DNA of 64,000 nucleotides from an uncultured Solibacteraceae bacterium (GCA_964584785.1 CAZPBY010000011.1:65877-129876); one strand, 5' to 3'; counted from the stretch's first letter, positions 503 through 46,229 are shown. The notes: a model not told the origin generated them from the letters alone. Numbers and translations are program-made.

Positions 503-2257
503 TCAGGGCAGAGAAACCGGAATGCCGAGCAGCACCTTCACGGCGACGGGTTCTCCACCGAGTTCAGCCGGCCTGAAAATCCATTTGCCTAAAGCCGCGA
601 GTACGGCCGCGTTCAACTGAGTGTCGGGACTTTGCTTCACCGACAGGTCCTGAAGTTTTCCTTCCGTATTCATGATGGCGTAGACCACGATCATCCTTCG
701 GTCGTATTTCCGCCCCAGTTCCGGTGGGAAATCCGGCTGGACCTTTGTTGCGGGGAACGGCGGAATGATGCCTTCATTCGATTTGCCCGCCGGCACGGAA
801 GGACTGGCGCCCATCACGGCATATTGCAGCGTCCACGACGGCCGCGGCGCGCCGTTGGGTGACTTCATGTCGAGGTAGACGGTGTACGCCTTCTCGTGAA
901 GGAACACGCCGAAATCCGGCAGTCCGCCACCGCTGTTGCCGGTCGATACGATGGTGATGCCATACGAACCGGTCGGAGCCGATGCATTCGACGAGCCCGA
1001 CGAGCCGAGCGTAATCGTTCCCGTGCGCGGCGACGCGGGGTTCCCTGGGCTTCCGGTTTCCAATCGTCCGCCTGTGATCGTCATTCCGCCAAACGGGCTG
1101 CGCGGCGGAGCCGGGGAGGCGCTGGTTTCAGCGTCCTTTGGTTTCACCGCCGTGCTTTCGGGAACGGCTTCCTTTGTGGATGCGGTGCTGGAAGCGGCGG
1201 GCTCCTTCACCGGTTCCTTCGGCGGCTCCTTAGTTGCGTTGTTCGGTGACGTTTCCTTCGGCGGCGCCGCCGGAGGCGCTGCCGCTTTTGTACCGGGCGC
1301 GATTGCGGCCGCCGTCAAGTTCGGTTCCGGCGAGATCGCAACTCGGCCTCGAGCCTCGCCGTTTGGAACCCGGACGACGGGTTCGGGCGGTGACGGCAAC
1401 GGGGTGATCGAAAGCACATTTTCTTTGTCGGGACCTTCCACCGGTACCGGAGCGGTCTTCGCAACTTTGAGTGGTTCGGGTGCCGGCGGAGGCTCCACAG
1501 GTTTTGGCGCAGGTGGCGGCGCCATGACATCGGCAGCAGCGGACGGAAGCGTCACTCGCGGTTGTTTCGCCGAAATCGGCGCAGGGACATTATTCGCGGC
1601 CACCAGAAGCTTTGTATCCGCTTTCGCCAGCTTCGGCTCCGGTTTGACTTCCGGTTTTGGCCGGACGTCCGGAATGGCCGGAGGCTTCGGAGCTTCCATT
1701 TTTGGCAAAGGCGCCGCGTTCGCCATCTGGATCAGGTTCGGCAGCTGGATCGGCGGAGGAATCACAACGGGATTCTCGAGCGCAGGCTGAAGTAATGTTT
1801 GAAACCGGTTTGTCGGGTTCGGCGAATCGGAAACGATCGCTTGGGGTCCGGGATAGCTCATTCCCGGTGCTGGTTTCTTCCTGGCAACTGCGGCGTCACT
1901 CTTTGGTTTGGAGGATTCCTCTGCGGCGGCCTTACCTTCGTCGTCACCCCCGACGCTGGGGAAATAGATCAGCTTCGCTTCATGCCGGATATCCATCATC
2001 AACAATAATTCCGGCGGCGGAGCGGGTTCCGCAAAATATCCGGCGTATACCTGCATGAAGAGCAGGCTGAAGAGAATCACCTCGTGGAATAGTGCCGAAT
2101 AAAGCAGCCCGCGGCTTGGAACCCTGCCGATGCTGGGAGTAGAACCTGTCGCGTATGGAAACGGAATGCCGTAGCGCGTTGGCCACAGTCGCACGGTCGA
2201 GTGCGTGGGCCGGTCGTGAAGGTTCAGAGTAGTGAGCAGAGGCGTCCTTGCCAACAT
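503..2257 (-). CDS. TonB-family energy transducer: N-terminal TM anchor, long Pro/Ala/Lys-rich linker, C-terminal TonB domain
   Basis: The C-terminus (…GKLQDLSVKQSPDTQLNAAVLAALGKWIFRPAELGGEPVAVKVLLGIPVSL) matches the TonB C-terminal fold. PAPPKPEPK-type proline-rich spacer. One hydrophobic helix near the N-terminus. The true start may lie downstream of the first ATG. Confidence 0.6.
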   Translation of the reverse strand: MLARTPLLTTLNLHDRPTHSTVRLWPTRYGIPFPYATGSTPSIGRVPSRGLLYSALFHEVILFSLLFMQVYAGYFAEPAPPPELLLMMDIRHEAKLIYFPSVGGDDEGKAAAEESSKPKSDAAVARKKPAPGMSYPGPQAIVSDSPNPTNRFQTLLQPALENPVVIPPPIQLPNLIQMANAAPLPKMEAPKPPAIPDVRPKPEVKPEPKLAKADTKLLVAANNVPAPISAKQPRVTLPSAAADVMAPPPAPKPVEPPPAPEPLKVAKTAPVPVEGPDKENVLSITPLPSPPEPVVRVPNGEARGRVAISPEPNLTAAAIAPGTKAAAPPAAPPKETSPNNATKEPPKEPVKEPAASSTASTKEAVPESTAVKPKDAETSASPAPPRSPFGGMTITGGRLETGSPGNPASPRTGTITLGSSGSSNASAPTGSYGITIVSTGNSGGGLPDFGVFLHEKAYTVYLDMKSPNGAPRPSWTLQYAVMGASPSVPAGKSNEGIIPPFPATKVQPDFPPELGRKYDRRMIVVYAIMNTEGKLQDLSVKQSPDTQLNAAVLAALGKWIFRPAELGGEPVAVKVLLGIPVSLP

Positions 2258-2263
2258 AGTTAC

Positions 2264-4045
2264 TTAACGGAACAAAGCGGCCTTCAGGACCGTGTAGGCA
2301 ACATTGTTGTTGAGCACCATATTGATGGTGGTGCCGCTGCTCATTTGCAGTTTGTCGCTGATGATGGCGCCGATCACATAGCTCGTCGAACCGGAGCCGC
2401 CCTTGAATTGCACCTGGTCGCCGTAAGCGCTGGATGAGCACGTCGTGTTTGCGCCGGGATCCGCGGAGCCGTCTGCTCCCGCGGTGCATTGATGAATGTA
2501 CATGGCGCCCGCCATGGAGAACTTCGAGCCGCCCGCCAGGACTGGTGTCGCTGCCTGGGCACGGTTCTGGAAAAAGAGAATTCCACGTTGTCTGCCATTC
2601 GGGTTTTTGGTGAGATCGTCTGCGTCCGGATTAGGGTCTCCATAATCGCCCGAACATGGAGCGAGCAGAACACTGCCGGAAATCGTCGTAGGGATGAAGG
2701 TTGGCAATGTCGCACCGGGGCACTTGGAATTGGATGTATCGAAGTTTGTAATGGTACGGTTACCAGGATTGCAATCTCCGCCACTTCCCTGAGCTGAAAA
2801 GGTGTCGTGTTTGCCGTCAGTGTCTGCCATATAGAATATCGTTCCACCGGTACCATCACCTGTATCGGTTGAGGGACGAGCACATCCGGCCGACTTGAGG
2901 GTGAATCCGCCCTTCGAAAGGTAGTAGACGCCCGGCTTGAAGATGATGGTCTTGTCTACCGTGATTCCATTTGTGTAGATGCCGGCGGAGTACTCGTCGC
3001 AGCCGTTAGGGTCCGGACATCCATGGTCGTTCACGTTGTGGGAGACTGTCGGATTGGTGGTCAGTCCCGTGGTGGGCGGAGCCGCGAAGGAGGAAAAGGG
3101 GTCCGAGGCAGGCGTCCCCGGAGAAACCCACTTTGGAGTGCGAGGACTCGTACAAGAAGTCGGCGCATTGGTTGTTGAACACCCCGTTGTGGTGCTGTTC
3201 GGACAGAAGGTGCCACCCCACGCCGACGATGTTGTGGGGCCTCCAAACACCAGAAGCTGTCCACCGCAATAGTCGGGTCCTCCATAGACAAGATTGATCG
3301 TTCCGGTTCCCGTCACTGCGGTTGTACTGCTGGAGTTGATTGCCAGCGTCAGTTCTGCGCCACCCATGATGGTAATAGTGCCATTGTTGTCCAGACTCGA
3401 GCCGGTTGGTGCGAGAAGTCCGATGGGAGCTGCTGATGCTACGTTGACGATGCCGCAAAGTGAAGCCGCCTTGACGTCCGTCGTGTTCGAACTGGAAAGC
3501 AGGCCCAAGAAAAAATTATGAACGCGATCCACCACATCGACACGCATGAGGGAGTTCGACACGGTACTCGATGGAGTAATTCCGGGAACGGGACATGCCG
3601 CACCGGCCGGACATGCGCTCTTGTCCGGGAAACTCACGTACACGTTGATCCCTGCGGTAGTTCCTGTGGAGGTCGCTTGTGCGCGCGTCAAGGTGCTCGA
3701 GTAGCTGTTCTCAGTCGCATACCAGCAGGGTTGAGCCGTGGTGGTGGTATAGCAATCGAAAGCCGTGCCTGACGTAAAATTAGGGTTGAGACCACCTGTA
3801 CCGGTGGGTGCGTGGTTGGCCACGGCCAGCATGTCCATTGCACCGGCGACACAAACGGCGTCGGCGACGTTTTGAGCTGTCTGTCGATGAAACCACAGGT
3901 AGGAATAGTCGACGGCCAAAGCCGCGGCTATGAGAACAAAAAGAGCGAGGCACACCATAACAAGGATGATGGCCTGACCGCTCTCTCGTGGCCGCTCCGT
4001 GCATAGTGTTCCTCTTGTAGTGATGGTTTCCGCCATCGTTAACAT
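2264..4045 (-). CDS. tadG: TadG-like Tad pilus pseudopilin / pilus-assembly protein, unusually large (593 aa), Ser/Thr/Gly/Cys-rich
   Basis: The N-terminus (RESGQAIILVMVCLALFVLIAAALAVDYSYLW) is the TadE/TadG-type hydrophobic segment. The remainder is low-complexity and T/S/G-rich with multiple Cys. It sits immediately downstream of two tadE-like genes. Confidence 0.6.
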   Translation of the reverse strand: MLTMAETITTRGTLCTERPRESGQAIILVMVCLALFVLIAAALAVDYSYLWFHRQTAQNVADAVCVAGAMDMLAVANHAPTGTGGLNPNFTSGTAFDCYTTTTAQPCWYATENSYSSTLTRAQATSTGTTAGINVYVSFPDKSACPAGAACPVPGITPSSTVSNSLMRVDVVDRVHNFFLGLLSSSNTTDVKAASLCGIVNVASAAPIGLLAPTGSSLDNNGTITIMGGAELTLAINSSSTTAVTGTGTINLVYGGPDYCGGQLLVFGGPTTSSAWGGTFCPNSTTTGCSTTNAPTSCTSPRTPKWVSPGTPASDPFSSFAAPPTTGLTTNPTVSHNVNDHGCPDPNGCDEYSAGIYTNGITVDKTIIFKPGVYYLSKGGFTLKSAGCARPSTDTGDGTGGTIFYMADTDGKHDTFSAQGSGGDCNPGNRTITNFDTSNSKCPGATLPTFIPTTISGSVLLAPCSGDYGDPNPDADDLTKNPNGRQRGILFFQNRAQAATPVLAGGSKFSMAGAMYIHQCTAGADGSADPGANTTCSSSAYGDQVQFKGGSGSTSYVIGAIISDKLQMSSGTTINMVLNNNVAYTVLKAALFR

Positions 4046-4081: not shown

Positions 4082-4540
4082 TCAATACACAATGCGGCCC
4101 TGAGCCGCAGCTTTAACGGTTCCCGGACTACCTCCAAGCGTGAAGATCGATACAAATGGATACGTCAGCTCGACGCGCACCCGGTTTGGTGCTTTATTGT
4201 TGCCGTCGAGGTAGCAGATGGAAACCGTCATGCCGGAGTAATTGGCGTAACCGCGGATAACGGAGTCGACTGCAGTGATATTCGTCGCACAGTCGGAACT
4301 TGAACCGGACGCCGGACCGCTTGAAGCGTCGAGCGAAGATGATTTCGTGTTGTAACCGTGCGCGACAGCGTATCGCACGCCTTCCTTGGCCGCGACAGAC
4401 ATGACGACGTAGGTGTACATCAAGAGCACATACTGCAGTGCGGCAAAGATAAAAGTCATGAGCAGGATGGCGGACACCATGAAGTCCACAGTTGCCTGTC
4501 CCCGCTCCGGTGATGTCTTGTTGTGCCTGACGTTTCGCAT
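4082..4540 (-). CDS. tadE: TadE-like pseudopilin (Flp pilus assembly)
   Basis: Start refined to the internal Met (MRNVRHNKTSPERGQATVDFMVSAILLMTFIFAALQY…). This avoids a 61-bp overlap with the upstream gene. ERGQATVxF plus a hydrophobic helix is the TadE-like N-terminal motif. Confidence 0.6.
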   Translation of the reverse strand: MRNVRHNKTSPERGQATVDFMVSAILLMTFIFAALQYVLLMYTYVVMSVAAKEGVRYAVAHGYNTKSSSLDASSGPASGSSSDCATNITAVDSVIRGYANYSGMTVSICYLDGNNKAPNRVRVELTYPFVSIFTLGGSPGTVKAAAQGRIVY

Positions 4541-4557
4541 CCTTGCTACATCCGCTT

Positions 4558-5175
4558 TCAGTTCATCGATCGCATGGAAAGCTGCCGATGAAAGGTACAA
4601 CTGCCCCCGCTGGTGCAAATCGAAACCGGCATCGTCGCCAGGTTAAAGGGGGAGCCGGTGATGATCGGCGAAAAAGTGTAGGTCACATCAACGCGACTTA
4701 GGACGAAATAGGGCGATTCGGGATCGCTGGACGGCAGTGGACTTCCACCGGACGTGTTGGATCCGCAGGTCGACTGATTCGTACAGGTGACGCAGTTTGA
4801 GCGCGTCACGCCACTGGACGTGTAGATGCCGCTGCCGCTAACCAGAACGGCGCTGCTGCAAACCTGAACCTGTGCGCTGGCGTAAGAACCCAGGGCTCCA
4901 TACATGTCCTGGTAAGCCAACGACGTGACGGTACTGCTCGTGGAAGTGGCAGGCGTTGCGGAAGGCAGGCCGCTGGCCTCCCCGGCCGGCGTCGAAAATC
5001 CCAGAATTCCATACTCGAGTGCCGTGCGCGGTGCCGTCGCGATGTTAAGCGCAACAAGAACAAAAAAGCTGAAATTGATGATGTTGAAGATGACGGTCAG
5101 GAGGACGGGCAGAACCAACGCGGTTTCAACGAGGGCCTGGCCTGAATTGCTTTTGAAAATCCGTTTCACTGCCAT
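4558..5175 (-). CDS. tadE: TadE-like pseudopilin (Flp pilus assembly)
   Basis: The N-terminus (SNSGQALVETALVLPVLLTVIFNII) is the canonical TadE/TadF motif. First gene of the minus-strand pseudopilin operon. Confidence 0.65.
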   Translation of the reverse strand: MAVKRIFKSNSGQALVETALVLPVLLTVIFNIINFSFFVLVALNIATAPRTALEYGILGFSTPAGEASGLPSATPATSTSSTVTSLAYQDMYGALGSYASAQVQVCSSAVLVSGSGIYTSSGVTRSNCVTCTNQSTCGSNTSGGSPLPSSDPESPYFVLSRVDVTYTFSPIITGSPFNLATMPVSICTSGGSCTFHRQLSMRSMN

Positions 5176-5344: not shown

Positions 5345-6862
5345 TTGCAGCGAGGGAAGTCTTTGACTGAAACGGCAACACTCTTATCGAACTCAACCTT
5401 TGTATCTCGTCCGGCCCGCTGGCTCCGGCTTGTATTCTCTTTTCCGGCGATGCTGGCGGTAATGCTCGGTTGCAACATCTTTATCCTTGCCCGAGGCACA
5501 ATTACCGATCCGGACATCTGGTGGCACAACCGCAACGTCGAATATCTCTTTCAGACGCATCACTTCCCAAACCAGGATGCCTATTCCTTCACCGTTGCCG
5601 GGAAGGATTGGATGAACTATGAGTGGCTTGCCGAAATACCGTTTTACGGCGCGTGGAAAGCCGCAGGACCTGTAGGGATCGAAGTTTTGATGATCATACT
5701 GGTCGAGGTGATTTTCCTCGAACTGCTTTACCTCTGCTACCGCGTGAGCGGTAACATCAAAGCGTCGTTGCTCTCCTGCGCTTTTTGCAGCTACCTGGCG
5801 GTAGTCAATTTCGGTCCGCGCACGATACTGTTTGGCTACGCATTCCTGGTTCTGCTGCTGATCATCCTCGAACGGTTTCGCTCCGGAAAGACCGGTTGCA
5901 TCTGGCTGCTGCCGCCTCTTTTCGCTGTCTGGTCCAACACGCACGGTTCCTGGCTGCTCGGGCTGATCGTGTTCGGTATCGTCGTCGCGGCGGGTTTTGT
6001 TGAGGGGCAATGGGGACGCGTCGAGTCCACGCGTTGGAGCGTCCGCGACATGATCCGCCTGGCCGGCGCCTGGCTGGCAAGCGCTGCCGCTCTTCTGCTG
6101 AATCCGTTCGGCTGGCGAATGGTGGTTTATCCCTTTGAATTTGCCTCGAAGCAGACGCTGAACGTGTCGCATGTCATTGAATGGGCTTCGGTCGACTTCC
6201 ACGATGTCCGCGGCAAGGTGGTCCTGGGTCTGCTGATCGGAATTATTCTCCTGGCGCTGTTTCGCAATCGAAAGTGGGCGCTGGCGGAACTCGGGTTACT
6301 CCTGTTCGGACTCTACTCCGGATTAACCTATGTGCGCTTTCTGTTCTTTCTTGCAGTCCTTATAGCTCCGCTTCTGGCCAAGTTGCTGGACTTCATTCCT
6401 CCGTATCAGCCGGAAATCGACAAGCCGGCGCTGAACGCCGTCTTCATGATTGGCGCGATTGTCGCTATTGCGACTCAGTTCCCCGTGCATTCGGCAACGG
6501 CTCATCAGGCCGACGCAGCCACACAGTTCCCCGCCGGGGCCCTTCCGTATTTTGGGGACCATCCGCTGGAGGGCAATCTTCTGAACTATTACAACTGGGG
6601 CGGCTATCTCGGTTGGCACAATCGTGACCTGAAGGTGTTTATCGACAGCCGTGTCGACATATTCGAGTATGCGGGCGTCCTTCGCGACTACCTGGACATT
6701 GCGGAGCTTCGTGAACCCGATAAGCTGCTGGACAAGTATCAGGTCCGTTATGTGCTGTTCCCGCCATCACACCACTTGACTTACGTTCTGGAGCACGATC
6801 CTCGCTGGAAAGTGAACTATCGCGACTCGGTTAGTGTTCTTTTCGAGCGCAAGTCATCGTGA
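5345..6862 (+). CDS. Polytopic membrane protein, probable GT-C-fold glycosyltransferase/polymerase-like; unassigned family, paralog of 8564..10072
   Basis: About 10 TM helices followed by a roughly 120-aa soluble C-terminal domain. The N-terminal loop motif DPDIWWHNRN…YSFTVAGKDWMNYEWLAEI is conserved with the paralog (DTDLWWHLRN…YSFTAAGAAWVDHSWLSEL). The C-terminal blocks (DSRVDIFEYAGVLRDY / DTRTDIFEYNGVLADY) are also conserved. Confidence 0.55.
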   Translation: MQRGKSLTETATLLSNSTFVSRPARWLRLVFSFPAMLAVMLGCNIFILARGTITDPDIWWHNRNVEYLFQTHHFPNQDAYSFTVAGKDWMNYEWLAEIPFYGAWKAAGPVGIEVLMIILVEVIFLELLYLCYRVSGNIKASLLSCAFCSYLAVVNFGPRTILFGYAFLVLLLIILERFRSGKTGCIWLLPPLFAVWSNTHGSWLLGLIVFGIVVAAGFVEGQWGRVESTRWSVRDMIRLAGAWLASAAALLLNPFGWRMVVYPFEFASKQTLNVSHVIEWASVDFHDVRGKVVLGLLIGIILLALFRNRKWALAELGLLLFGLYSGLTYVRFLFFLAVLIAPLLAKLLDFIPPYQPEIDKPALNAVFMIGAIVAIATQFPVHSATAHQADAATQFPAGALPYFGDHPLEGNLLNYYNWGGYLGWHNRDLKVFIDSRVDIFEYAGVLRDYLDIAELREPDKLLDKYQVRYVLFPPSHHLTYVLEHDPRWKVNYRDSVSVLFERKSS

Positions 6863-6892
6863 AGATTCCAAAGTAATGGTGACAATACACCT

Positions 6893-8581
6893 GTGAATGG
6901 GTCGTTTTTAGCGATGGAGGTGTGTCTGGCTGCTTTGGCGGTCGGCGCCGCTTACATTGCTCCCGGATGGCTCGCGAGTGGGTATCGAAGACTGGACAGT
7001 GTGTTGACTCGCGCATCGCGCCGTCCAGGTGTGGCAGTCCTGGCAATCGGCGCGCTGGCACTCGTCGCCCGGGCGGCGGTGCTGCCGGTGCTGCCGGTTC
7101 CTCAACCGAGAATTCAGGACGAATTCAGCTATCTTCTCGCTGCCGACACTTTTGCCCACGGCCGGATGACGAACCCTGCGCATCCGATGTGGGTTCACTT
7201 CGAAAGCTTCCACATCATCCACAACCCGACCTATGCCTCCATGTACTACCCCGGGTTGGGGCTCATGCTCGCTGCAGGCGAGGTCGTATTCGGCCATCCA
7301 TTCGTCGGCGTGTGGCTGAGTCTGGGATTCATGTGCGCCGCAATTTGTTGGATGCTTCAGGGCTGGCTGCCCGGAAAGTGGGCCGTCCTGGGCGGCTGTA
7401 TCGCCATTGTCCGCGTCGCGATGTTCAGCTACTGGGCGGACAGCTACTTCGGCGGGACACTACCCGCGATCGGTGGTGCGCTGGTTCTTGGAGCTTTGCC
7501 GCGCATTCAACGGCGGCGGCAGGTCCGGCATTCACTTGTGATGGCCGCAGGTCTGGCGATACTTGCGAACACCCGGCCCTGGGAAGGGCTGTTCTTTGGC
7601 ATACCTGTGGCGGCCGTGATAATAGGTTGGATGCTGCAAAAGAACGCTCCGTCCGTGCGAGTATGCATTCGCAGGATCATTCTGCCGATCTCGCTGGCGC
7701 TGGTATTGATCGTTTCCGCCATGGGTTATTACTTCTGGCGCGTCACCGGTAGTCCCTTTCGCATTCCTTACCAGGTCAACATACAGACCTACGGTTTGAT
7801 GTATTTTCCGTGGCAGGAACTGAAGCCGTTGCCTGAGTATCACCATGCGGTGATGCGCGACTTTTACGAAAAATACAGCCTGGACCCGTACCTGAAGGCG
7901 AATTCAAACCCGTCCGACAGGGTGATTGGCACTCTGGCCGGGTTCTGGTTGTTCTATTTCGGGCCGGTTCTCACACTTCCTTTCCTGGTATGGACGGTGA
8001 CCAGGCCTGCCGGCGTGGGGAGGTTTGCCAGCCGGAAAACGCGCTTTTTCGCGGCCGTGTGCCTTGTCACGCTTGTCGGAATCATGCTGCCCATCTACGG
8101 AGCGCAGCCGCACTATGGCGGAGCGTTACTGAGCGCCTTCTATGCACTGCTCTTACAGGCGATGCGGCACACGCGCTTCTGGCGATGGGAAGGGAAACGC
8201 GCTGGAGAAGTCATCATTGCGTCAGTGCTGTGTATCTGCGCCGCGCTTGTTGTCGTGCGTGTTGCGACTCCCTTGCCGTGCGGCAAACTCCGGACCTGGT
8301 GTTCCGAACCCTTCGGCAACACCGATCGGGCAAGGGTATTGGCCGAATTGTCCGCTTATGAGGGAGGGCAGCTGGCTATAGTCCGATATGGACCGAATCA
8401 TGACTCCGTATTCAATGAATGGGTCTACAACGATGCGGGGATCGACCAATCAAAAGTCGTTTGGGCCCGGGAAATGTCACCCGCTGAAGATCGCGAGTTG
8501 ATCCATTACTTCAAAGACCGCCAGGTGTGGCTGGTCGAAGCGGACGAAAAGCCCGCCAGAGTGTCACCTTACCTGCAATGA
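6893..8581 (+). CDS. GT39/GT83-like (PMT/ArnT-type) GT-C membrane glycosyltransferase
   Basis: A multi-TM protein with an acidic DE motif in the first extracytoplasmic loop (PQPRIQDEFSYLLAADTFAHGRMTNPAHPMW). This resembles the DE…HPP loop of PMT_2/ArnT enzymes. Long hydrophobic body. Confidence 0.5.
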   Translation: MNGSFLAMEVCLAALAVGAAYIAPGWLASGYRRLDSVLTRASRRPGVAVLAIGALALVARAAVLPVLPVPQPRIQDEFSYLLAADTFAHGRMTNPAHPMWVHFESFHIIHNPTYASMYYPGLGLMLAAGEVVFGHPFVGVWLSLGFMCAAICWMLQGWLPGKWAVLGGCIAIVRVAMFSYWADSYFGGTLPAIGGALVLGALPRIQRRRQVRHSLVMAAGLAILANTRPWEGLFFGIPVAAVIIGWMLQKNAPSVRVCIRRIILPISLALVLIVSAMGYYFWRVTGSPFRIPYQVNIQTYGLMYFPWQELKPLPEYHHAVMRDFYEKYSLDPYLKANSNPSDRVIGTLAGFWLFYFGPVLTLPFLVWTVTRPAGVGRFASRKTRFFAAVCLVTLVGIMLPIYGAQPHYGGALLSAFYALLLQAMRHTRFWRWEGKRAGEVIIASVLCICAALVVVRVATPLPCGKLRTWCSEPFGNTDRARVLAELSAYEGGQLAIVRYGPNHDSVFNEWVYNDAGIDQSKVVWAREMSPAEDRELIHYFKDRQVWLVEADEKPARVSPYLQ

Positions 8582-10072
8582 ATCTTCGTGCCGGCGCTTG
8601 TAGATGACCGCCTGATGGTCTGAGTAAGCGCGCTCCCACCGGGAAGACTTCGACAGATAGTAGGCCAGAGGTGTGCCTGCCGGATAGATCACATACCCGA
8701 TACTGTACTTATCGAGCAGGTCATCCGTGTTCTGAAACGTCGAGATTGAAAAGTAATCGGCCAATACTCCGTTGTACTCGAAAATGTCCGTCCGCGTGTC
8801 GATGAACGTGGGGATTTCGGGAGCGAACCATTCGACGTATCCTCCCCATTCGTACTGGTTGAATATGTTTCCTGCGCCGTGATTGGCTTTCAGGTAATTC
8901 GTCGCGGATGCCGGAAAGAACGCGTTCACCTGGGCGGTGAGAGTTTGCTCCGCCGGAAAAGCCAGTACCATCGCCAGCGCGATGATGCCGAGGATCGAGG
9001 CGTTGACGATCCTTCGCTCGTTCGAAGGATCGTAGGAACTCAAGCGAGGAAGATGGCGCACCAGAAGCGGCGGCAGGACAATCCCGGTCATCACCAGGAA
9101 ACGAATGTGGGTCAGGCCGCAAAACACCACGAACGCCGTGAGCACTGCGTCGTCGATCCGCCATCGCCCCTTCGGGAACAACGCCGCCGCGAAAACCGCC
9201 GCCAGCGTCACGAGGGCATAAGCACCGAGCCGATCATTGAAATTGATGGAAGCCCACTCGCTGCCGATCGCGACGTTGAATTTCTGGCTGAGCATCAGAT
9301 CGAAGGGATACCGTACGAGCCGCCATCCATACGGATTGACAAAGAGTGCGGCAATCGAGGCCGCAAACACGCTCAGCATCCGTCGGATTTCGGCGGAGGT
9401 CCAGGGCGACGAAGTGAGGCGTCCTTCATACCTCGGGATCAACCCGGAGCCGAAGATCAGTCCGAATATCACCATTCCCATCGGCCAACCACCATGCAAA
9501 TTGATCCACAACGTGAACAGCGGTGGTATCAGCCACAGCGGGGCGTTTCTCGTATCCCTGAACCGCAGCAGGATTGCGAAGAGTGCCACAAAGCAGAGCC
9601 AGCCGAAGTTTTGGGCGCGAGGCGTAAAGCCGACCCCGGCCAGCAAGCCTCCGAACACAGCGGCGAGTCCGGCTACCAACGGGTCCGCGGCTCGTTTGAC
9701 GCACAACTGGAAGATCGCTATGCCAATCACTGCCACGCTAATAGCAAAGATCACAAATACGCCGCGCATCCCAAGGGTCTGATAGCCGGCATGGTAGATG
9801 AGTTCCGAAAGCCACGAATGGTCGACCCAGGCGGCGCCGGCGGCGGTGAAGGAATATGAATCGACGTTCGGCAGCCGGAAGTTGGAAACGATGTATCGAG
9901 CGTTGCGAAGATGCCACCACAGGTCGGTGTCGACCAGATTACCGCGGCATGTCCAGAATGCTTTGGCTGCGATGATGGCCATGAGGACCGTCGGGAAAGT
10001 GAAGAATCCGCCGTGTACTGGCCTCGTCAGCCGATCGGCTTTTGGAGTCTCCATAATAGGTCCGTGCAGCAT
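8564..10072 (-). CDS. Polytopic membrane protein, same unassigned 'DxWWH' family as 5345..6862
   Basis: Clear paralogy with 5345..6862 along its whole length. Convergent with the GT39-like gene, with 18-bp 3' overlap. Confidence 0.55.
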   Translation of the reverse strand: MLHGPIMETPKADRLTRPVHGGFFTFPTVLMAIIAAKAFWTCRGNLVDTDLWWHLRNARYIVSNFRLPNVDSYSFTAAGAAWVDHSWLSELIYHAGYQTLGMRGVFVIFAISVAVIGIAIFQLCVKRAADPLVAGLAAVFGGLLAGVGFTPRAQNFGWLCFVALFAILLRFRDTRNAPLWLIPPLFTLWINLHGGWPMGMVIFGLIFGSGLIPRYEGRLTSSPWTSAEIRRMLSVFAASIAALFVNPYGWRLVRYPFDLMLSQKFNVAIGSEWASINFNDRLGAYALVTLAAVFAAALFPKGRWRIDDAVLTAFVVFCGLTHIRFLVMTGIVLPPLLVRHLPRLSSYDPSNERRIVNASILGIIALAMVLAFPAEQTLTAQVNAFFPASATNYLKANHGAGNIFNQYEWGGYVEWFAPEIPTFIDTRTDIFEYNGVLADYFSISTFQNTDDLLDKYSIGYVIYPAGTPLAYYLSKSSRWERAYSDHQAVIYKRRHEDSLQVR

Positions 10073-10088: not shown

Positions 10089-11456
10089 CTAAATCAGTTT
10101 CTTGTATCGGAATACTGCGGGAATCAAAGAATCCAGCCGTGACTGGCTGGGATACAGCTGGAATAATTCGAAACAAGTCCGAGAACCATTCGCCTCGGCG
10201 TGGACGTAGCATTCCAGCACCATCTTCTTGTGCTCCGTCACGTAATCGGCCGCACTCCAAATGCTCCGGTCTTGCGCAACCGTACTGAAGAGAAGATAGC
10301 CCAGCATCGCCGTTTTGAAGTAACTTCCATACCGAAGATCCGAAAAGACAAAGAACAGCCCGACCGGCACAAGCATCGTGTAGCTGACATATCGCGAAGA
10401 AAGAGCCTGATTGGCGCCAAATGAGGATCGGCCCAGGGTTATCAGCAAGGCGAACATCACTCCGTAGCCGACAAGAAACGTTCCTGTAAGCGCATTTCGC
10501 CGATCGCTGGAGCGAAGGCCGGCAACTCCAATCGTTCCGGCGAGCAGCGTTGCCAACACCAGCACAAAAGCAAGTGGAGTCGTTGCCGGACCCGGCGAGA
10601 ATATTCCAGCGCCTAGCGCGAAAAACCCCTTACTGATCGCCGCCATGAAATAAACAACCATGTTTGCGGAAAGCCGGGAAGCCGGGCTGACCTGGAAGTC
10701 CCGGGCAAATCCCACGAAATAAGACGCAATGATCAGTGTGTTGGCGGCGGTGAAAGCGATCCATTGAGGAGTAGCCTGTTTTTCCTCGCGGTGTTCGAAT
10801 ACCAGGAACAGCGCCGTTATGAACGGTAGCAGCAGACCATGAAGACTCGAATATGCACTCAGAAGAGAAAGGACAGTAAGAGCGACGTTTCGCCGCGTGC
10901 GCAGATTCCCTGGGCAAAGGTTCACGACGAGAAGCCACAAGACCGCGAACCACAGCGGCAAGATGAACATGAGTTGGAAGCCCCAGATGAGGTTTTCCAT
11001 CTGAAGTATGTTGAGGACCGTCAGAGGTATGACAAGGTCCAGAACAGAAATCCTTCCGGCGGTCTTGTACCTCAGCAGAACGAGACCTGCCGCGGCAGCG
11101 AAAATAAGAGTGGCTGTCACGTAGATCTCGACGGTCTGGCTCCAGTTCGTTAACCTGGCCAGCCCTTTCATCAAAAGCAAACCGACACCGATTCGATGCT
11201 CGTCATGCTGCGATAGAAGGAGTTCCTTTAGTGAGGCGTTGCCGATTAAAAGACTGCCGACATCCCACTCATCCCAGAAAGGGACATTGACCGCGTTGCT
11301 CACGACGAAGCGGAAGAAGTGGCGGCAAATGACGCAGGCGCCCAGCGCGAAGAGCACCAACTGTGCTTTAGTCGACAACAACAGGTGTGCCGGCGACCTT
11401 CTGGTGTTATGCCATTCCATTCGGCAACTCGGAGTGCAGCCGGACCTGAAAGACAA
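10089..11456 (-). CDS. Polytopic integral membrane protein, possible GT-C glycosyltransferase
   Basis: At least 10 predicted TM helices. Acidic loop motif FWDEWD near the N-terminus. No recognisable soluble domain. It lies within a cluster of GT-C genes. Confidence 0.4.
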   Translation of the reverse strand: MSFRSGCTPSCRMEWHNTRRSPAHLLLSTKAQLVLFALGACVICRHFFRFVVSNAVNVPFWDEWDVGSLLIGNASLKELLLSQHDEHRIGVGLLLMKGLARLTNWSQTVEIYVTATLIFAAAAGLVLLRYKTAGRISVLDLVIPLTVLNILQMENLIWGFQLMFILPLWFAVLWLLVVNLCPGNLRTRRNVALTVLSLLSAYSSLHGLLLPFITALFLVFEHREEKQATPQWIAFTAANTLIIASYFVGFARDFQVSPASRLSANMVVYFMAAISKGFFALGAGIFSPGPATTPLAFVLVLATLLAGTIGVAGLRSSDRRNALTGTFLVGYGVMFALLITLGRSSFGANQALSSRYVSYTMLVPVGLFFVFSDLRYGSYFKTAMLGYLLFSTVAQDRSIWSAADYVTEHKKMVLECYVHAEANGSRTCFELFQLYPSQSRLDSLIPAVFRYKKLI

Positions 11457-12654
11457 GGAACGTCAGTATGGGTAGTGACACCAGGAAGAAATGAGAAGGC
11501 ATCACAAACAACAAGAACGGAGCGGCAAGCATCCCGACACACGTCAACACCATGAAAAAGGGGAAGCGGTTCAGGATGTAGTCGCCCGCTATCAAGCGAT
11601 TCAAGAGAATCGCGACCGGAATCACCAGGTAACAGACGTCATGAACGAACGCATAGTAGCTGACCGTCACACTCACCGTGATCGCAACAAGGAACGCGGT
11701 GCCCGAAGACGCCTTGCGCAATGCCGGCCGTGTCGCGACAACCATCAAAGTGAGCATCGATGCGGTAGCGATGGCAATTTGTATCCATGTTTCCGGCCAA
11801 CGGCCATTCGCTAGCCCAAAGATGAGTCCGCGCAGATTGGCCATGAGTGTGACATCGAGAGGAAATCCTCCGCCTGCGCCGACGGAAAACAACGACCGCG
11901 CAAAGATAACGGCTTTGGCAGGACCGATCACCATCAGGGAAACTACAAGAGCAGCCCCAGTCGACATAGCGAAGCCTGAAAGGAATCGCCAGCGTCGCCA
12001 GACCAGAAACAGTAAGGCAATCGGGCCGACAATTTGAGGCTTGAATGCGCCAAGTCCGACGAGCAGGCCCGCCGGGAGATCCTTGCCGTCATCCAGGTAG
12101 ACGAAAGCGGACGCCAGAAGCGCCAGTAGAATGACGGAATCCTGTCCTTGAATCAGGGCCACGCAGACCGGCAGGAATGCCGGAAACAGCAGTGCAGGCA
12201 ACCATCTCCAGCAACGAGCAATCTCAGCGAGCTTCGACCTGAGGACGTGTACCGTCAGGCCGAGCACAACAAAATTGATGCCCAGAAACATCAGGTAAGC
12301 GGCGCGATAATTCAGCAGTGAGAGCGGAACGAACAGAAGCGCCTGGTACGCCGGCCTGATGAATGGGAGCGCACCCTGTTCCACACTAACGACAGCATTT
12401 TGGAAGTGCCACTGCGATTCATAGTTATACAACTCGCTGGAGTGGCCCGTGCGCACCATGTACCCGGCTGTGTAGAGTTGACGGAAATCCGCGTGGCCGC
12501 TCAAGGCCGTAGGCAAAAAGGCGAGCAACACCAGCATTTGAAAACTGGCGAGAAGAGGAACCAGCGCCAAAGTGGCGTCCTTCGTCAGCTTGGGCAAGTC
12601 CAGTTGATCGAGCCACGAACGCAAATGGCCCTGGAAGTCGTTTCGCATTGTCAT
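11407..12654 (-). CDS. DUF2029 / GT87-like (PimE-type) polyprenol-phosphate-mannose-dependent glycosyltransferase
   Basis: The N-terminal loop (ADFRQLYTAGYMVRTGHSSELYNYE) matches the DF..Y…G…LY signature of DUF2029/GT87. Multi-TM. Paralog of 12745..14022. Confidence 0.55.
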   Translation of the reverse strand: MTMRNDFQGHLRSWLDQLDLPKLTKDATLALVPLLASFQMLVLLAFLPTALSGHADFRQLYTAGYMVRTGHSSELYNYESQWHFQNAVVSVEQGALPFIRPAYQALLFVPLSLLNYRAAYLMFLGINFVVLGLTVHVLRSKLAEIARCWRWLPALLFPAFLPVCVALIQGQDSVILLALLASAFVYLDDGKDLPAGLLVGLGAFKPQIVGPIALLFLVWRRWRFLSGFAMSTGAALVVSLMVIGPAKAVIFARSLFSVGAGGGFPLDVTLMANLRGLIFGLANGRWPETWIQIAIATASMLTLMVVATRPALRKASSGTAFLVAITVSVTVSYYAFVHDVCYLVIPVAILLNRLIAGDYILNRFPFFMVLTCVGMLAAPFLLFVMPSHFFLVSLPILTFLVFQVRLHSELPNGMA

Positions 12655-12744: not shown

Positions 12745-14022
12745 TCAGGCAATCGTTTGTTTATCGGCACTACTATTCCCGGAAAGGTGGACGGCGGCGA
12801 TCGCGAATGTAATCAGTATGGGACACATGACGTACATGTGCAGCCCCTTCAGACCTATCGCGACAATGGGAACGCCGAATAACAGCAAACTACTCGCACT
12901 AAGCGCTGTTCTCCACCACCCCTGTCCAAACCTGAAATCCGGGCAACCGAGGACTAGAAGAACGGCGAGCAGCATCAGGCTCAGGTCGTGGTAAAGCGAA
13001 TGAAAACCAGTGACGATCGATACTGCGAGTGCTGCGGCAAAGAGCAATTCCGGTCGCCCCCCGCTTCCGAGATCCTGGCGGCGCCAAACCCAGGCTACAA
13101 ACGCGATTAGTGAAATTGCAGTTAGCGCAGAAAGCAGAGTAATCCACGATGGAGCGATTCGACCGCTGAGGACGACCTGGAAGAAGCTGTTTACGGACAT
13201 CATGTGGAAAGCAGGAACAATGCCGTTATACGGATGGGCCGGGTTCGTCGCGATTCCAAAGAGCAGCTGGACGTAGGAACGCACGCCATCGACGCCTACA
13301 GCGACAATGGATATCACTCCGAGAATCATTGCCATGGTGGCTAGTCCGGCAAGGGTTGCCCACTTCCGGCGCACCAGGTAAATCAAGGCAAACGGCACAA
13401 CAAGTTGAAACCGAAAGAGCCCAAGCCCCAGAAACAGACCCGCGCGATAATCACGTCCTGCTTTGACGCTCAGGTAGACCAGCGAGTACAGCACAAGCAA
13501 CACGATCGAGGTCTGACCCTGGAGAAATGCGACCCACACCGGCAGGTAGGCAAAACAAAGTATCAGGTACTGGAAGGTTGGGGTTGGAACTGGGGCAAAT
13601 GGGCGAATGGCCCAACAAAACCAAAGCCAAAGCAGGATGTCGATAAGACCCCATAGAAAGTAGGCTTGGAAATACGACATCCAGGCGAAAGGCATGACGA
13701 AGAGAGCTTCAAACGGCGGGTGAATCACAGGCAGCAGCCCGGAAATGTGAAAGACTTCCTTCTCGGCGTTCATCTGCTCCTGGAAATCGTACAGATGGGC
13801 AGCATCGCCATGACGCATGATCCAGGCTGCGATGTACATGCTGTTGAAATCATTTCGGGCCGCTTCGCGGGATACGACTTCAAATCCAAGTACTGCCAGA
13901 AGCAACAGGACAGTGACGGCAACGCCGATTCGAACGTCCCGTACCGATGTCTGGCCGCCATCTGACATTTTGCTGGTGACTCCGCCTCGCCAGGCCGGAT
14001 CGTAACACGCCAAAGGACCCAC
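12745..14022 (-). CDS. DUF2029 / GT87-like membrane glycosyltransferase (paralog)
   Basis: NDFNSMYIAAWIMRHGDAAHLYDF is the same signature as in the neighbouring paralog. Multi-TM. Confidence 0.55.
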   Translation of the reverse strand: MGPLACYDPAWRGGVTSKMSDGGQTSVRDVRIGVAVTVLLLLAVLGFEVVSREAARNDFNSMYIAAWIMRHGDAAHLYDFQEQMNAEKEVFHISGLLPVIHPPFEALFVMPFAWMSYFQAYFLWGLIDILLWLWFCWAIRPFAPVPTPTFQYLILCFAYLPVWVAFLQGQTSIVLLVLYSLVYLSVKAGRDYRAGLFLGLGLFRFQLVVPFALIYLVRRKWATLAGLATMAMILGVISIVAVGVDGVRSYVQLLFGIATNPAHPYNGIVPAFHMMSVNSFFQVVLSGRIAPSWITLLSALTAISLIAFVAWVWRRQDLGSGGRPELLFAAALAVSIVTGFHSLYHDLSLMLLAVLLVLGCPDFRFGQGWWRTALSASSLLLFGVPIVAIGLKGLHMYVMCPILITFAIAAVHLSGNSSADKQTIA

Positions 14023-14095: not shown

Positions 14096-14704
14096 GTGAG
14101 TAGATCGCAAAATAACGGCAATGGGTTTCGAGATTATTACGAAGTCCTTCAACTAAGTCCGAACGCGGACGCCGACACCATCAGCCGGGTCTATCGCATT
14201 CTGGTCAAGCGATATCACCCGGACAATCAGACGTCTGCCAACGAAAAGAAATTTGCGGAAGTTCTCGAAGCGTACCGTGTCCTGTCCGATGAAGAAAAAC
14301 GCACCGCTTATGACCTCGTTTACGAGGAGAATCGGGCTGCATTGCTGAAGATCTTCGACGAGGCGTCGGGGACAAGCAGCTTTGAATCTGATAAACGCAT
14401 TCTGGACGGCATTTTGTCGCTGCTTTACGTTGCGCGCCGCAGGGACCCGGTAAAGGGTACGATGGGTACGATCCAAATCGAACGGCTGCTCGGATGTCCG
14501 GCCGAGCATCTCGAATTTCATATCTGGTACCTGGTGGAAAAGAAGTGGATTGAGCGTCAAAGCAACGGAATGTTCGCCATCACGGCTGCCGGCCTGGACC
14601 ATATGGTCGAGGAAGACTCGCTGATCGTCCGTCGCAACCGGCTCCTCGCGGAGAAGTCCTCGTCTGCGAGCGAGGGCAGGGTCAAAGAGATCGAAAAAAC
14701 CTGA
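14096..14704 (+). CDS. J-domain (DnaJ-like) protein with C-terminal winged-helix-like domain
   Basis: N-terminal J domain with an HPD motif (DYYEVLQLSPNADADTISRVYRILVKRYHPDN). The C-terminal half (…LEFHIWYLVEKKWIERQSNGMFAITAAGLDHMVEE) resembles a winged HTH. Confidence 0.7.
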   Translation: MSRSQNNGNGFRDYYEVLQLSPNADADTISRVYRILVKRYHPDNQTSANEKKFAEVLEAYRVLSDEEKRTAYDLVYEENRAALLKIFDEASGTSSFESDKRILDGILSLLYVARRRDPVKGTMGTIQIERLLGCPAEHLEFHIWYLVEKKWIERQSNGMFAITAAGLDHMVEEDSLIVRRNRLLAEKSSSASEGRVKEIEKT

Positions 14705-14834: not shown

Positions 14835-15020
14835 ATGGCTAAGATGCAGCATTTATTTAACGCCCTCCACCAGGACGAAAGCGGCCAAGGATTGGTCGAA
14901 TACGTTCTCGTCATCGCGCTCATCGCACTCGGATCGGTTGCCACAATGTCCAGCGCCGCAAGCGCAATCGCCCAGGCGTTCGACAAGCTCGACAACAAGC
15001 TGGTCAGCGCACTGCCGTAA
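14835..15020 (+). CDS. flp: Flp-family type IVb/c prepilin (Tad pilus major pilin), copy 1
   Basis: 61 aa with the canonical Flp motif ESG|QGLVEYVLVIALIALG (G↓XXXXEY prepilin peptidase site). Good RBS (aggaga) 7 nt upstream. Confidence 0.85.
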   Translation: MAKMQHLFNALHQDESGQGLVEYVLVIALIALGSVATMSSAASAIAQAFDKLDNKLVSALP

Positions 15021-15451: not shown

Positions 15452-15637
15452 ATGGCCAAGATGGATCGTTTACTGAATGACCTTCACACCGATGAAAGCG
15501 GTCAGGGGTTGGTCGAGTACGTGCTCGTAATCGCGTTAATCGCATTAGGGTCCGTTGCGACAATGTCCAGCGCCGCAAGTTCAATCGCGCAAGCGTTCAA
15601 TAAGCTCAACAACAAGCTCATTAGCGCCGTTCCGTAG
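15452..15637 (+). CDS. flp: Flp-family prepilin, copy 2
   Basis: 61 aa with DESG|QGLVEYVLVIALIALGSVATMSSAAS. The mature region differs from copy 1 at 5 residues and the leader differs more. Many synonymous DNA differences. Confidence 0.85.
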   Translation: MAKMDRLLNDLHTDESGQGLVEYVLVIALIALGSVATMSSAASSIAQAFNKLNNKLISAVP

Positions 15638-15765
15638 ACTGCTCCCAGCTTCATGTGCGTTTAAGAGATCGTGCCGGTGTCGAAAGGTGCCGGCCAGATC
15701 CTTATTCTACCCACATTTCTGGAAACGGGCCTGGTGTTAACCGGGCTTCATCTATCGGAGAACGA

Positions 15766-16279
15766 CGTGATCTTTGCTTTGGCGATCGCTGTGGTAGCCG
15801 CCGTCGCAGATTTGCGTACTAAGCGGATACCCAACTGGTTGACGTACGGAGGGATTATTAGCGCTTTAGCTGGGCGTCTAGTGATGCTGGGTTGGCCTGG
15901 CCTGAAAGACGGGCTGGAAGGCATGCTTCTCGGCTCTTCCGTTTTCCTGATTCTATTTGTGCTCGGCGGAATGGGCGGCGGTGACGTCAAACTGATGGCC
16001 GCTGTCGGCGCGTTTGCGGGAACAGCCTCGATCGCGCCGCTTTTGATCGCGACTGCAGTAGCAGGTGGTGTCATGGCGGTGGTCATGATGACACTTCGCG
16101 GTCGGATACTGATAACGCTGTGGAACAGTCTTGAACTAGCGCGTCATCACATGACGGCCGGGCTGCAGCCACACCCCGTATTGAATGTGCGTGAGTCTCA
16201 TTCGATGCGATTACCATTCGCGCCGGCTATCGCCGCTGGAGTTTTGTATTGTTTGAGCCAGACATTTCCGTGGAGGTGA
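15766..16279 (+). CDS. cpaA: Prepilin peptidase CpaA/TadV (A24 peptidase family)
   Basis: …AVADLRTKRIPNWLTYGG… and the GGGDVKLMAAVGAF motif. GTG start at 15766 preceded by ggag gives a typical roughly 170-aa CpaA. The longer ORF from 15671 is less likely. Confidence 0.7.
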
Positions 16280-16282
16280 TTC

Positions 16283-17200: not shown

Positions 17201-17202
17201 CC

Positions 17203-18561: not shown

Positions 18562-18563
18562 TC

Positions 18564-19808: not shown

Positions 19809-19813
19809 CGACA

Positions 19814-21187
<1,374 letters not shown>

Positions 21188-21199
21188 AAGGAGCATGCG

Positions 21200-22153: not shown

Positions 22154-22157
22154 AGCC

Positions 22158-46219: not shown

Positions 46220-46229
46220 GAGGAACGGA

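Follow-up and report, generated by a model that had tools for sequence, protein, structure and literature searches.

The stretch of DNA analysed here, 64,000 nucleotides from an uncultured Solibacteraceae bacterium (GCA_964584785.1 CAZPBY010000011.1:65877-129876; the whole stretch is referred to below as the window), carries two related genes for polytopic membrane proteins within a locus for a Tad/Flp pilus. These genes, here called A and B, are convergent, with a third membrane-protein gene, C, lying between them; the 3' ends of C and B overlap by 18 bp. A first-pass annotation made from the sequence alone had delimited both open reading frames (ORFs), and its coordinates and strands were exact (Table 1). 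It had also described the two products as full-length paralogs, which is borne out by BLASTP: A and B are 36% identical, with 56% positives, over 473 aa with 2 gaps (E = 9e-115). The peptide strings that it quoted were found in both proteins, DPDIWWHNRNVEYLF...YSFTVAGKDWMNYEWLAEI and DSRVDIFEYAGVLRDY in A and DTDLWWHLRNARYIV...YSFTAAGAAWVDHSWLSEL and DTRTDIFEYNGVLADY in B. The real start of A may be slightly downstream of the TTG codon; it must precede residue 31, since that is where conservation across the family begins.

Together with C, a further membrane-protein gene (D) and two GT87 genes (GT87a and GT87b), A and B sit between the two halves of a complete Tad/Flp locus. The earlier annotation had spoken of an island, and the island is indeed present, but the pilus locus around it had been overlooked. 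On one side are genes for a TadG-like protein and for two TadE/TadF-like pseudopilins, the latter divergent from A across a 170-bp gap; on the other are two flp genes and the operon for the Tad machinery, which spans 15671..23066 on the plus strand and whose genes were assigned by Pfam matches. The island itself consists of a plus-strand unit, A and C, divergent from tadE, and a minus-strand unit, GT87b, GT87a, D and B, divergent from the flp side. GT87 is a family of polyprenol-phosphate-mannose-dependent mannosyltransferases known from mycobacterial lipoglycan synthesis.

Table 1. Genes and motifs of the window, in coordinates counted from its first nucleotide
Feature	Coordinates	Strand	Description and basis
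Gene A	5345..6862	+	505 aa, TTG start; very probable GT-C fold membrane glycosyltransferase, unnamed 'DPD-WWH' family
A, loop-1 motif	5507..5593	+	Residues 55-83, predicted first periplasmic loop; D55-P-D57-I-W-W-H61 ... P75-N-Q-D78-A-Y-S81-F-T83
A, long flexible loop	6101..6205	+	Residues 253-287, predicted periplasmic; N253-P254, invariant E279-W280
A, C-terminal domain	6482..6859	+	Residues 380-505, ~125 aa, predicted alpha/beta periplasmic domain; N414, W418-G-G-Y421, F432-x-D434-x-R436-x-D438
Gene B	8564..10072	-	502 aa, ATG start; deep paralog of A, same family
B, loop-1 motif	9845..9931	-	Residues 48-76, predicted first periplasmic loop; D48-T-D50-L-W-W-H54 ... D71-S-Y-S74-F-T76
TonB_C gene	503..2257	-	584 aa, Pro/Ala/Lys-rich, C-terminal TonB_C domain
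tadG-like	2264..4045	-	593 aa, Ser/Thr/Gly-rich minor pilin/pilus-tip protein; PF13400 Tad, E 4.1e-8
tadE/tadF-like, first	4082..4618	-	Pseudopilin; PF07811 TadE, E 8.3e-7
tadE/tadF-like, second	4558..5175	-	Pseudopilin; PF07811 TadE, E 4.6e-6
Gene C	6893..8581	+	562 aa, polytopic membrane protein of a second Pfam-less family; invariant D76-E77-F78 after first transmembrane segment
Gene D	10089..11456	-	455 aa, polytopic membrane protein; ~10 hydrophobic segments, Pfam noise only
GT87a	11407..12654	-	GT-C glycosyltransferase; PF09594, E 3.1e-21
GT87b	12745..14022	-	GT-C glycosyltransferase, first gene of the minus-strand operon ending in B; PF09594, E 2.2e-21
dnaJ-like	14096..14704	+	202 aa, J-domain
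flp1	14835..15020	+	61-aa Flp prepilin, '...ESG|QGLVEY...' processing site; alignment with 47 Flp sequences of related loci
flp2	15452..15637	+	Second 61-aa Flp prepilin; same alignment
tadV	15671..16279	+	Prepilin peptidase; Peptidase_A24
rcpC/cpaB	16283..17200	+	RcpC
Secretin gene	17203..18561	+	Secretin
tadZ	18564..19808	+	AAA_31 + Response_reg
tadA	19814..21187	+	ATPase; T2SSE
tadB	21200..22153	+	T2SSF
tadC	22158..23066	+	T2SSF
PSD/PSCyt + DUF1552 pair	43697..47603	+	Planctomycete-type 'PSD/PSCyt' (DUF1592/1588/1587/1585/1595) and DUF1552 (HXXSHH)

The family to which A and B belong is very large and unnamed. The first-pass annotation had been unable to assign it, and it stays unassigned: neither A nor B has a Pfam or NCBIfam match at E<=1, and no recurrent Pfam family emerged when 83 diverse members were scanned singly at E<=10; one member has a weak match to PMT_4TMC (0.14). 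A profile built from 32 members gave no real match among the sequences of the PDB, and no oligosaccharyltransferase (OST); matches to TetR structures at E ~0.1 were rejected as a chance 'WWH...W' resemblance. A word-indexed search returned at least 1,436 homologs of A, all annotated as hypothetical and lacking a Pfam domain, with Terriglobia or Candidatus Sulfotelmatobacter as the few named sources. In an exhaustive profile search of 1.84 billion representatives of 50% identity clusters, the family accounted for 30,143 clusters at E<=1e-3, 20,104 at E<=1e-10 and 4,868 at E<=1e-30. When one genome was taken per GTDB species, at least 561 family loci were found, nearly all of them in metagenome-assembled genomes (MAGs) of Acidobacteriota.

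The linkage to Tad genes seen in the window is conserved. Orthologs of A (42-60% identical to it) were surveyed in 60 species-representative loci with full flanks; a Tad gene lies within 10 kb in 49 of them, and on both sides in 26 of those 49. In a set of 61 A-type loci, each flanked by 3 kb or more on either side, 42 have tadE/G as their closest Tad gene, and in half of these (21) the distance is under 700 bp. B orthologs, which share 48-64% identity with B, are either divergent from flp or directly after tadC, with flp the nearest Tad gene in six of nine loci. Members of a third clade, ~26% identical to A, lie just upstream of a 53-aa Flp-like ORF, rcpC, a secretin gene and tadZABC, with GT87 genes on the other side. 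Three long contigs display an extended order of tadG, tadE, tadE (then a sigma-54 activator gene), the A ortholog, variable GT-C genes, flp, tadV, rcpC and the secretin gene. The family is a conserved accessory gene of the Tad/Flp loci of Acidobacteriota, in three deep clades, and it is probable that it functions with the Tad system. Our literature search turned up no report of a GT-C gene within such loci.

The other genes of the island do not share this constancy. In many loci the A ortholog is the sole GT-C-like gene (e.g. L011, L022, L033, L037, L039, L050, L060, L069), and among the 60 A-ortholog loci C-like genes occur in 16, GT87 genes in 13 and D in none. The family member is therefore the conserved core, and the remaining genes are variable extras.

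Several related loci carry additional genes of their own. A sigma-54 response regulator gene (Response_reg + Sigma54_activat) lies between tadE and the A ortholog in the three long contigs (L001 7861..9288, L002 8015..9496, L003 7899..9368) and is missing from this window; matches to the sigma-54 promoter consensus were fewer than expected by chance, with none upstream of A, B or flp. In a Terriglobia MAG (L001 12502..21549) the A ortholog is followed by a GT2 glycosyltransferase gene, two family copies, a GT2-methyltransferase fusion, an NAD-dependent epimerase, two methyltransferases and transketolase subunits. So much richer a sugar-modification island may give a clue to how the donor is made. 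In three Sulfotelmatobacter-like contigs (L131-L133), genes for an FHA-GAF-SpoIIE (PP2C phosphatase) protein and a glucoamylase (Glyco_hydro_15) are conserved upstream of the third-clade member, alongside the cluster of GT87, family and Tad genes.

AlphaFold2 (AF2) models of the two proteins were of good overall quality, with a predicted local distance difference test score (pLDDT) of 83.7 and a predicted template modelling score (pTM) of 0.84 for A, and 81.7 and 0.83 respectively for B. Each has ~11 predicted transmembrane (TM) helices, a cytoplasmic N-terminus and a periplasmic C-terminal domain, in agreement with the architecture of a TM bundle plus periplasmic domain first proposed. In both models a short helix in loop 1 begins at the DPD motif, and E279-W280 are borne on a long loop of low confidence, the pLDDT being low at residues 272-276 of A.

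The earlier annotation had favoured a glycosyl- or oligosaccharyl-transferase over a transporter and had named a structural search as the way to decide; Foldseek comparison of both models with the PDB upholds that preference. The top 10-20 matches of each model are all GT-C proteins with probability 1.00, and the remainder fall below 0.1 except for ALG6 at 0.51. Yeast STT3 was found at E 1.2e-7 (TMq 0.61) with A and 1.5e-7 with B, AglB at 6e-6 and 7e-6, DPY19 at 1e-5 and 6e-6, and ArnT at 8e-3 and 6e-4. Human STT3A/B, PglB (1.9e-4), ALG12 (8e-4) and EmbB were listed for A only, and AftB (1.4e-3) for B only. Furthermore, the isolated C-terminal globular domain of AglB-S2 (3vu0_B) matched B with probability 1.00 and a root-mean-square deviation of 4.5 Å over 161 columns. 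The idea that A and B are permeases or transporters, to which a polytopic membrane protein with no family assignment naturally lends itself, is effectively refuted by these searches: no transporter scored above 0.1 in either of them and every confident match was to a GT-C protein. A and B are very probably GT-C enzymes of an undescribed family.

Conservation was assessed over the 83 members, which extend down to 26% identity. Residues that are invariant or at least 90% conserved (A numbering) are D57, W59, H61, S81, W94, R159, P190, W196, N198, H200, P254, P263, E279, W280, R331, N414, G419, G420, F432, D434, R436, D438 and W488. From the helix order and the positive-inside distribution, all of the family-invariant polar residues are placed on the periplasmic side in the predicted topology: D55/D57/H61/D78 in loop 1, R159, N198/H200, E279, R331, and D434/R436/D438 in the C-terminal domain. 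D57 is invariant in all 83 sequences and lies 8 residues past TM1, at the start of the loop-1 helix, thereby supplying the conserved acidic residue in the first extracytoplasmic loop that is a feature of GT-C enzymes. Loop 1 (residues 55-83) is proposed to be the putative catalytic loop. It could be argued instead that the family has a non-catalytic role in Tad assembly, as a scaffold in the inner membrane or a chaperone for pilins in which the GT-C fold has been retained; the tight Tad synteny and the lack of donor-synthesis genes nearby would suit such a role. The acidic, basic and histidine residues held invariant at the periplasmic positions of a GT-C active site speak against it, and since these are kept down to ~26% overall identity an enzyme is to be expected; a purely structural function is thus considered very improbable.

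The position of the family among GT-C enzymes was addressed by comparison of sequence profiles with hhalign. Against 27 PMT_2-type proteins taken from similar Tad-linked islands (the seeds of which carry PF13231) the family scored 60.2, with a probability of 90.7% and E 1.2e-6, where reversed nulls gave 18.6-18.7. Against an OST profile of 14 PglBs, STT3A, STT3B and one fungal STT3 the score was 40.9 (P 4.6e-4, probability 33%) over 374 collinear columns; reversed profiles gave 23-24 and the best of 30 block-shuffles 27.7. Other GT-C families scored 22-34, in alignments that were short or out of register, and the true homologs PglB and STT3 scored 52 against each other with equally shallow profiles. 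The OST signal was obtained only with the combined profile and was not significant against a single PglB or against shallow PglB-only and STT3-only profiles; the PglB homolog search had yielded only close Campylobacter sequences. The C. lari PglB and human STT3A query sequences were 99-100% identical to PDB entries 3RCE and 6S7O.

The two signals come from different parts of the protein. The N-terminal half of A (residues 25-252) reaches 88% probability with the PMT_2-type proteins and 3.6% with OST, whereas the C-terminal half (residues 253-505) reaches 6.6% with the former and 19.8% with the latter (P 1.2e-3, 209 columns). In the N-terminal half, loop 1 'D-P-D57-x-W-W-H ... P75..D78-x-Y-S-F-T..G86' aligns with 'D-P-D-E-G ... 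Y-x-D-F-F-S-F-x-T-P-G' of the PMT_2-type proteins, and D57 is therefore taken as the counterpart of the catalytic loop-1 aspartate of ArnT/PMT-type enzymes. The Pfam PMT_2 model (PF13231) itself had no match at E<=10 among the 83 members, and features of GT39 are lacking: the family D-P-D-(I/L)-W is without the conserved glutamate of 'DE', and there is no MIR domain, the largest loop being ~35 residues.

In the OST alignment, which has a probability of 20-33%, I-x-E279-W is paired with T-I-M-E319 of PglB (the TIXE motif), the R331 helix with 'LRAGLRF', W418-G-G-Y with W-D-Y-G-Y, and V-F-I-D434-(G/S)-R with T-L-I-D-G-G. It is possible from this that loop 253-287 of A is the counterpart of OST external loop 5 (EL5) with its TIXE glutamate. 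Other motifs of OST are absent. The DxD/ExD metal motif in the loop after TM3 is not seen, 'YYDTD' of PglB (D154/D156) facing R159-P of the family; WWDYG is replaced by x-W418-G419-G420-Y421, so that the aspartate which reads the +2 Ser/Thr of the sequon is an invariant glycine; the DK/MI motif is likewise missing, as the C-terminal domain stops before the MI region of PglB and there is no conserved D-x-x-K or M-x-x-I; and PF02516 (Pfam STT3) has no match in A or B at E<=1 or in any of the 83 members at E<=10. Because the defining sequence tests of both families gave negative results, the present family is filed neither in GT66 nor in PF13231. A reading of it as specifically 'STT3-like' was dropped, the N-terminal half being much closer to the PMT_2-type proteins. 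It is best described as a mosaic, in which a conserved module is PMT_2/ArnT-like by sequence and a variable module and C-terminal domain are STT3/AglB/DPY19-like, strongly by structure and weakly by sequence.

These comparisons also bear on whether A and B could be true oligosaccharyltransferases, distant relatives of STT3, PglB and AglB that move a pre-assembled glycan in one piece from undecaprenyl pyrophosphate onto many proteins of the periplasm or cell surface, of which Tad components would be only some. STT3, AglB and PglB are the top structural matches, the C-terminal domain resembles AglB-S2, and the collinear alignment pairs I-x-E279 with TIXE, R331 with 'LRAGLRF' and WGGY-x8-VFIDGR with WDYGY-x8-TLIDGG; moreover one family member by itself in a Tad locus would be enough were the glycan made elsewhere in the genome. 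Set against this are the arginine-proline in place of DxD, the glycine in place of the WWDYG aspartate, the missing DK/MI motif and PF02516 match, and the affinity of the N-terminal module for PMT_2-type proteins rather than OST. The candidate substrates argue in the same direction, as an N-x-S/T sequon is present in only 6 of 47 Flp pilins from related loci. Oligosaccharyl transfer of this kind is accordingly regarded as improbable. Classical N-glycosylation is also unlikely, given the scarcity of sequons and the missing sequon-reading aspartate.

The reading that we favour, with a probability of roughly 0.5, is that A and B are periplasmic GT-C glycosyltransferases which use polyprenyl-phosphate sugars to modify a component of the Tad pilus. 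By analogy with known GT-C enzymology, a sugar carried on polyprenyl phosphate would be taken at the outer face of the inner membrane. D57 in loop 1 would act as the catalytic base or as a residue activating the acceptor, with R159, H200, R331 and R436 as candidates for binding of the phosphate, and the flexible E279 loop and the C-terminal domain may close over the acceptor in the manner of EL5 and the soluble domain of OST. The donor is more likely to be a single sugar linked through a monophosphate than an oligosaccharide linked through a pyrophosphate, since DxD is replaced by Arg-Pro, invariant arginine and histidine residues are available for the phosphate, and the neighbouring GT87 family depends on polyprenol-phosphate-mannose. 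In the window, C, D and the two GT87 genes would then extend or diversify the glycan.

A protein is favoured as the acceptor because the closest structures, STT3 and DPY19, are protein-glycosylating GT-Cs, and it is this similarity combined with synteny that points to the pilus. The acceptor is quite possibly a pilin or minor pilin: Flp, the TadE/TadF/TadG minor pilins or both would be modified in the periplasm, either ahead of pilus assembly or while it takes place. The local candidates are Flp and the Ser/Thr-rich TadE/TadG, and the Flp pilins of related loci, with a mature length of ~44 aa, are 26% Ser/Thr in their exposed half. Earlier work had already suggested that Flp pilins are glycosylated and had implicated RcpC in the process, but it named no transferase (PMC12307814).

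A number of observations weigh against modification of the pilus. The 47 Flp pilins share no conserved acceptor motif, and 'INSAF(S/T)', the mid-helix motif that is best conserved among them, is absent from the Flp proteins of the window. There is no direct evidence for a glycan on acidobacterial Tad pili, and the only high-resolution structure of a Tad pilus, that of Caulobacter, has no glycan density (PMC10710030). Genes for donor synthesis (a polyprenyl-phosphate sugar synthase, sugar-nucleotide enzymes, a flippase) are lacking from the window. In the protein itself, the N-terminal module resembles ArnT/PMT_2 enzymes, some of which modify lipids and not proteins; the similarity to OST is statistically weak; and D57 and D78 are both candidates for the catalytic residue. 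Finally, 8 of the 61 A-type loci have no nearby Tad gene, and there are tandem arrays of 3-4 copies of distant members (L074, L078, L079, L127) with no Tad genes within 10 kb, so that the family is not exclusively pilus-linked.

Several of these points would fit with a family that builds or modifies a non-protein envelope glycoconjugate, such as an adhesive exopolysaccharide, a lipoglycan or an ArnT-like decoration of lipid A/lipopolysaccharide, which cooperates or is co-regulated with Tad pili whose own proteins are unglycosylated; the cooperation of pili and holdfast in Caulobacter offers a model. Homology of the N-terminal catalytic module to PMT_2/ArnT-type proteins, the Tad-less tandem arrays and the bare Caulobacter pilus are all consistent with this, as are the presence of GT87 neighbours, given the role of that family in lipoglycan synthesis, and a gene content of the island that varies by genome as in surface-polysaccharide loci. 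However, in many loci a lone family member between tadE and flp is the sole glycosyltransferase-like gene in the Tad cluster, and near such lone members there are no polymerase, flippase, export or chain-length genes. The structures, too, are closest to STT3 and DPY19 and not to ArnT or Emb. An envelope target is for these reasons held to be unlikely, though less so than the other alternatives to pilus modification.

The earlier annotation had suggested that two diverged copies in one island might reflect two specificities, for substrate or for sugar. In a neighbour-joining tree A falls inside the tadE-linked clade and B alone on a deep separate branch, from which it follows that the pair reflects an ancient paralogy and not a local duplication. 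Between the A and B clades, 72 positions are held in common at 90% conservation or above; they take in every motif core and are concentrated in the periplasmic loops and C-terminal domain. Only five positions are strictly clade-specific (L162/N155, L313/I306, P352/S345, D359/E352, Y395/F386) and none is in a motif core; different sugar specificities are therefore unsupported by fixed differences in the active site. Both of the neighbourhoods typical of the clades are preserved in the window, with A next to tadE/G and B next to flp, an arrangement that hints, speculatively, that the two copies serve different pilus acceptors.

Gene C had been labelled 'GT39-like', a label unsupported by Pfam, PDB or hhalign; like A and B, C itself drew no match from Pfam or NCBIfam. 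Its own family (14 sequences) has no Pfam match at E<=10 and no PDB sequence match, reaches a probability of 7.5% against the PMT_2-type proteins, and is represented in L002 and L003 by Pfam-less genes and not by PF13231 genes. Given the invariant D-E-F after TM1, C is plausibly another GT-C enzyme. Gene D, to which none of the related loci has a relative, is an orphan within the island, and the first 50 bp of its predicted reading frame overlap the end of the GT87 gene.

Other features of the locus and window may be noted here. The tandem flp1 and flp2 are ~85% identical and ~430 bp apart, and their mature sequences read 'IAQAF(D/N)' in place of the 'INSAF(S/T)' common to most Flp pilins of related loci. 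The DnaJ gene that separates the glycosyltransferase island from flp1 has no counterpart in any of ~130 related loci and so resembles an insertion into the Tad locus that is specific to this lineage. The TonB_C gene directly downstream of tadG may be a further accessory Tad component, since 15 of 60 related loci have a relative of it in this place. The other 40 kb of the window is housekeeping; it includes a PSD/PSCyt and DUF1552 gene pair unrelated to A and B, belonging to families of unknown function that are typical of Planctomycetota and Acidobacteriota.

Taken beyond the window, it is tentatively proposed that the family is the missing glycosyltransferase of Tad/Flp pili: a new GT family with an ArnT/PMT-like catalytic module and an STT3/AglB-like acceptor module, its clades specialised for different subunits and its GT87/PMT_2-type neighbours elongating the glycan. 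Tad/Flp pili are widespread organelles of adhesion and colonisation, and glycans on pilins frequently determine resistance to phage, surface charge and adhesion. That Flp is modified post-translationally is a suspicion of many years' standing, but to our knowledge no enzyme has been assigned to the modification. The present proteins are the best candidates so far for enzymes glycosylating the Tad pili of Acidobacteriota, a phylum among the most abundant and least tractable of those in soil, and variable gene content of the island may explain strain-level diversity in soil biofilm behaviour. They probably represent a new glycosyltransferase family for CAZy and Pfam, and an informative evolutionary intermediate in which a PMT/ArnT-like catalytic module is joined to an STT3/AglB-like variable module and C-terminal domain that lacks the sequon-reading motif. 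If the proposal is correct, bacterial Tad pili would share a locus-encoded GT-C glycosylation step with archaeal type IV pili.

Among known systems, pilin-linked glycosylation by a GT-C enzyme has so far been known from TfpW in type IVa pili. TfpW, a GT-C protein with 11 TM segments encoded beside pilA, arabinosylates the type IV pilin of P. aeruginosa (10.1101/2020.04.19.049825). This D-arabinofuranosyltransferase of group IV strains offers the nearest functional parallel to the present proposal. In common with the family it has a cytoplasmic N-terminus, 11 predicted TM segments, an acidic motif in loop 1 and a periplasmic C-terminal domain, and its gene adjoins pilus genes, as those of the family adjoin tadE/G or flp in three deep clades. 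It differs in serving type IVa pili where the family is linked to Tad/Flp, and in having a TPR C-terminal domain where that of the family is a small alpha/beta domain of ~125 aa; it also relies on a D-Araf (DprE1/DprE2) cluster, whereas the locus in the window has no DprE-like or TPR genes. No sequence relationship between the two was seen or tested for.

The only statistically solid sequence relationship is that to the PMT_2-domain proteins (PF13231; the ArnT/GT83 and PMT/GT39 side), and it is driven by TM1-4 and loop 1. The family departs from them in lacking the 'DE' glutamate and the MIR domain of GT39, in a C-terminal half that stays unaligned (6.6%), and in structure, where ArnT comes well below STT3. 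The best structural matches of both A and B are instead to the STT3/AglB/PglB group (GT66, PF02516), with E about 1e-7 and TMq about 0.6. These enzymes have 13 TM segments against ~11 in the family and are ~600 to >850 aa in length against ~500; of their motifs DxD and DK/MI are absent from the family and WWDYG is degenerate (xWGGY). The PglL/TfpO (PilO) O-oligosaccharyltransferases also glycosylate pilins in the periplasm, and tfpO lies beside pilA, but they have a Wzy_C/O-antigen-ligase-like fold and no relationship to them appeared in the Pfam scans or fold searches.

Finally, the DPY19 tryptophan C-mannosyltransferase is the second-best structural match, at E 6e-6 to 1e-5. It glycosylates proteins from a monophosphate-linked single sugar, needs no DxD metal site and possesses an STT3-like variable module (PMC10154233). 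This combination of features is the one that would be expected of the family described here. DPY19 differs in being eukaryotic, with 13 TM segments, a larger luminal dome and WxxW sequons, which Flp pilins lack.

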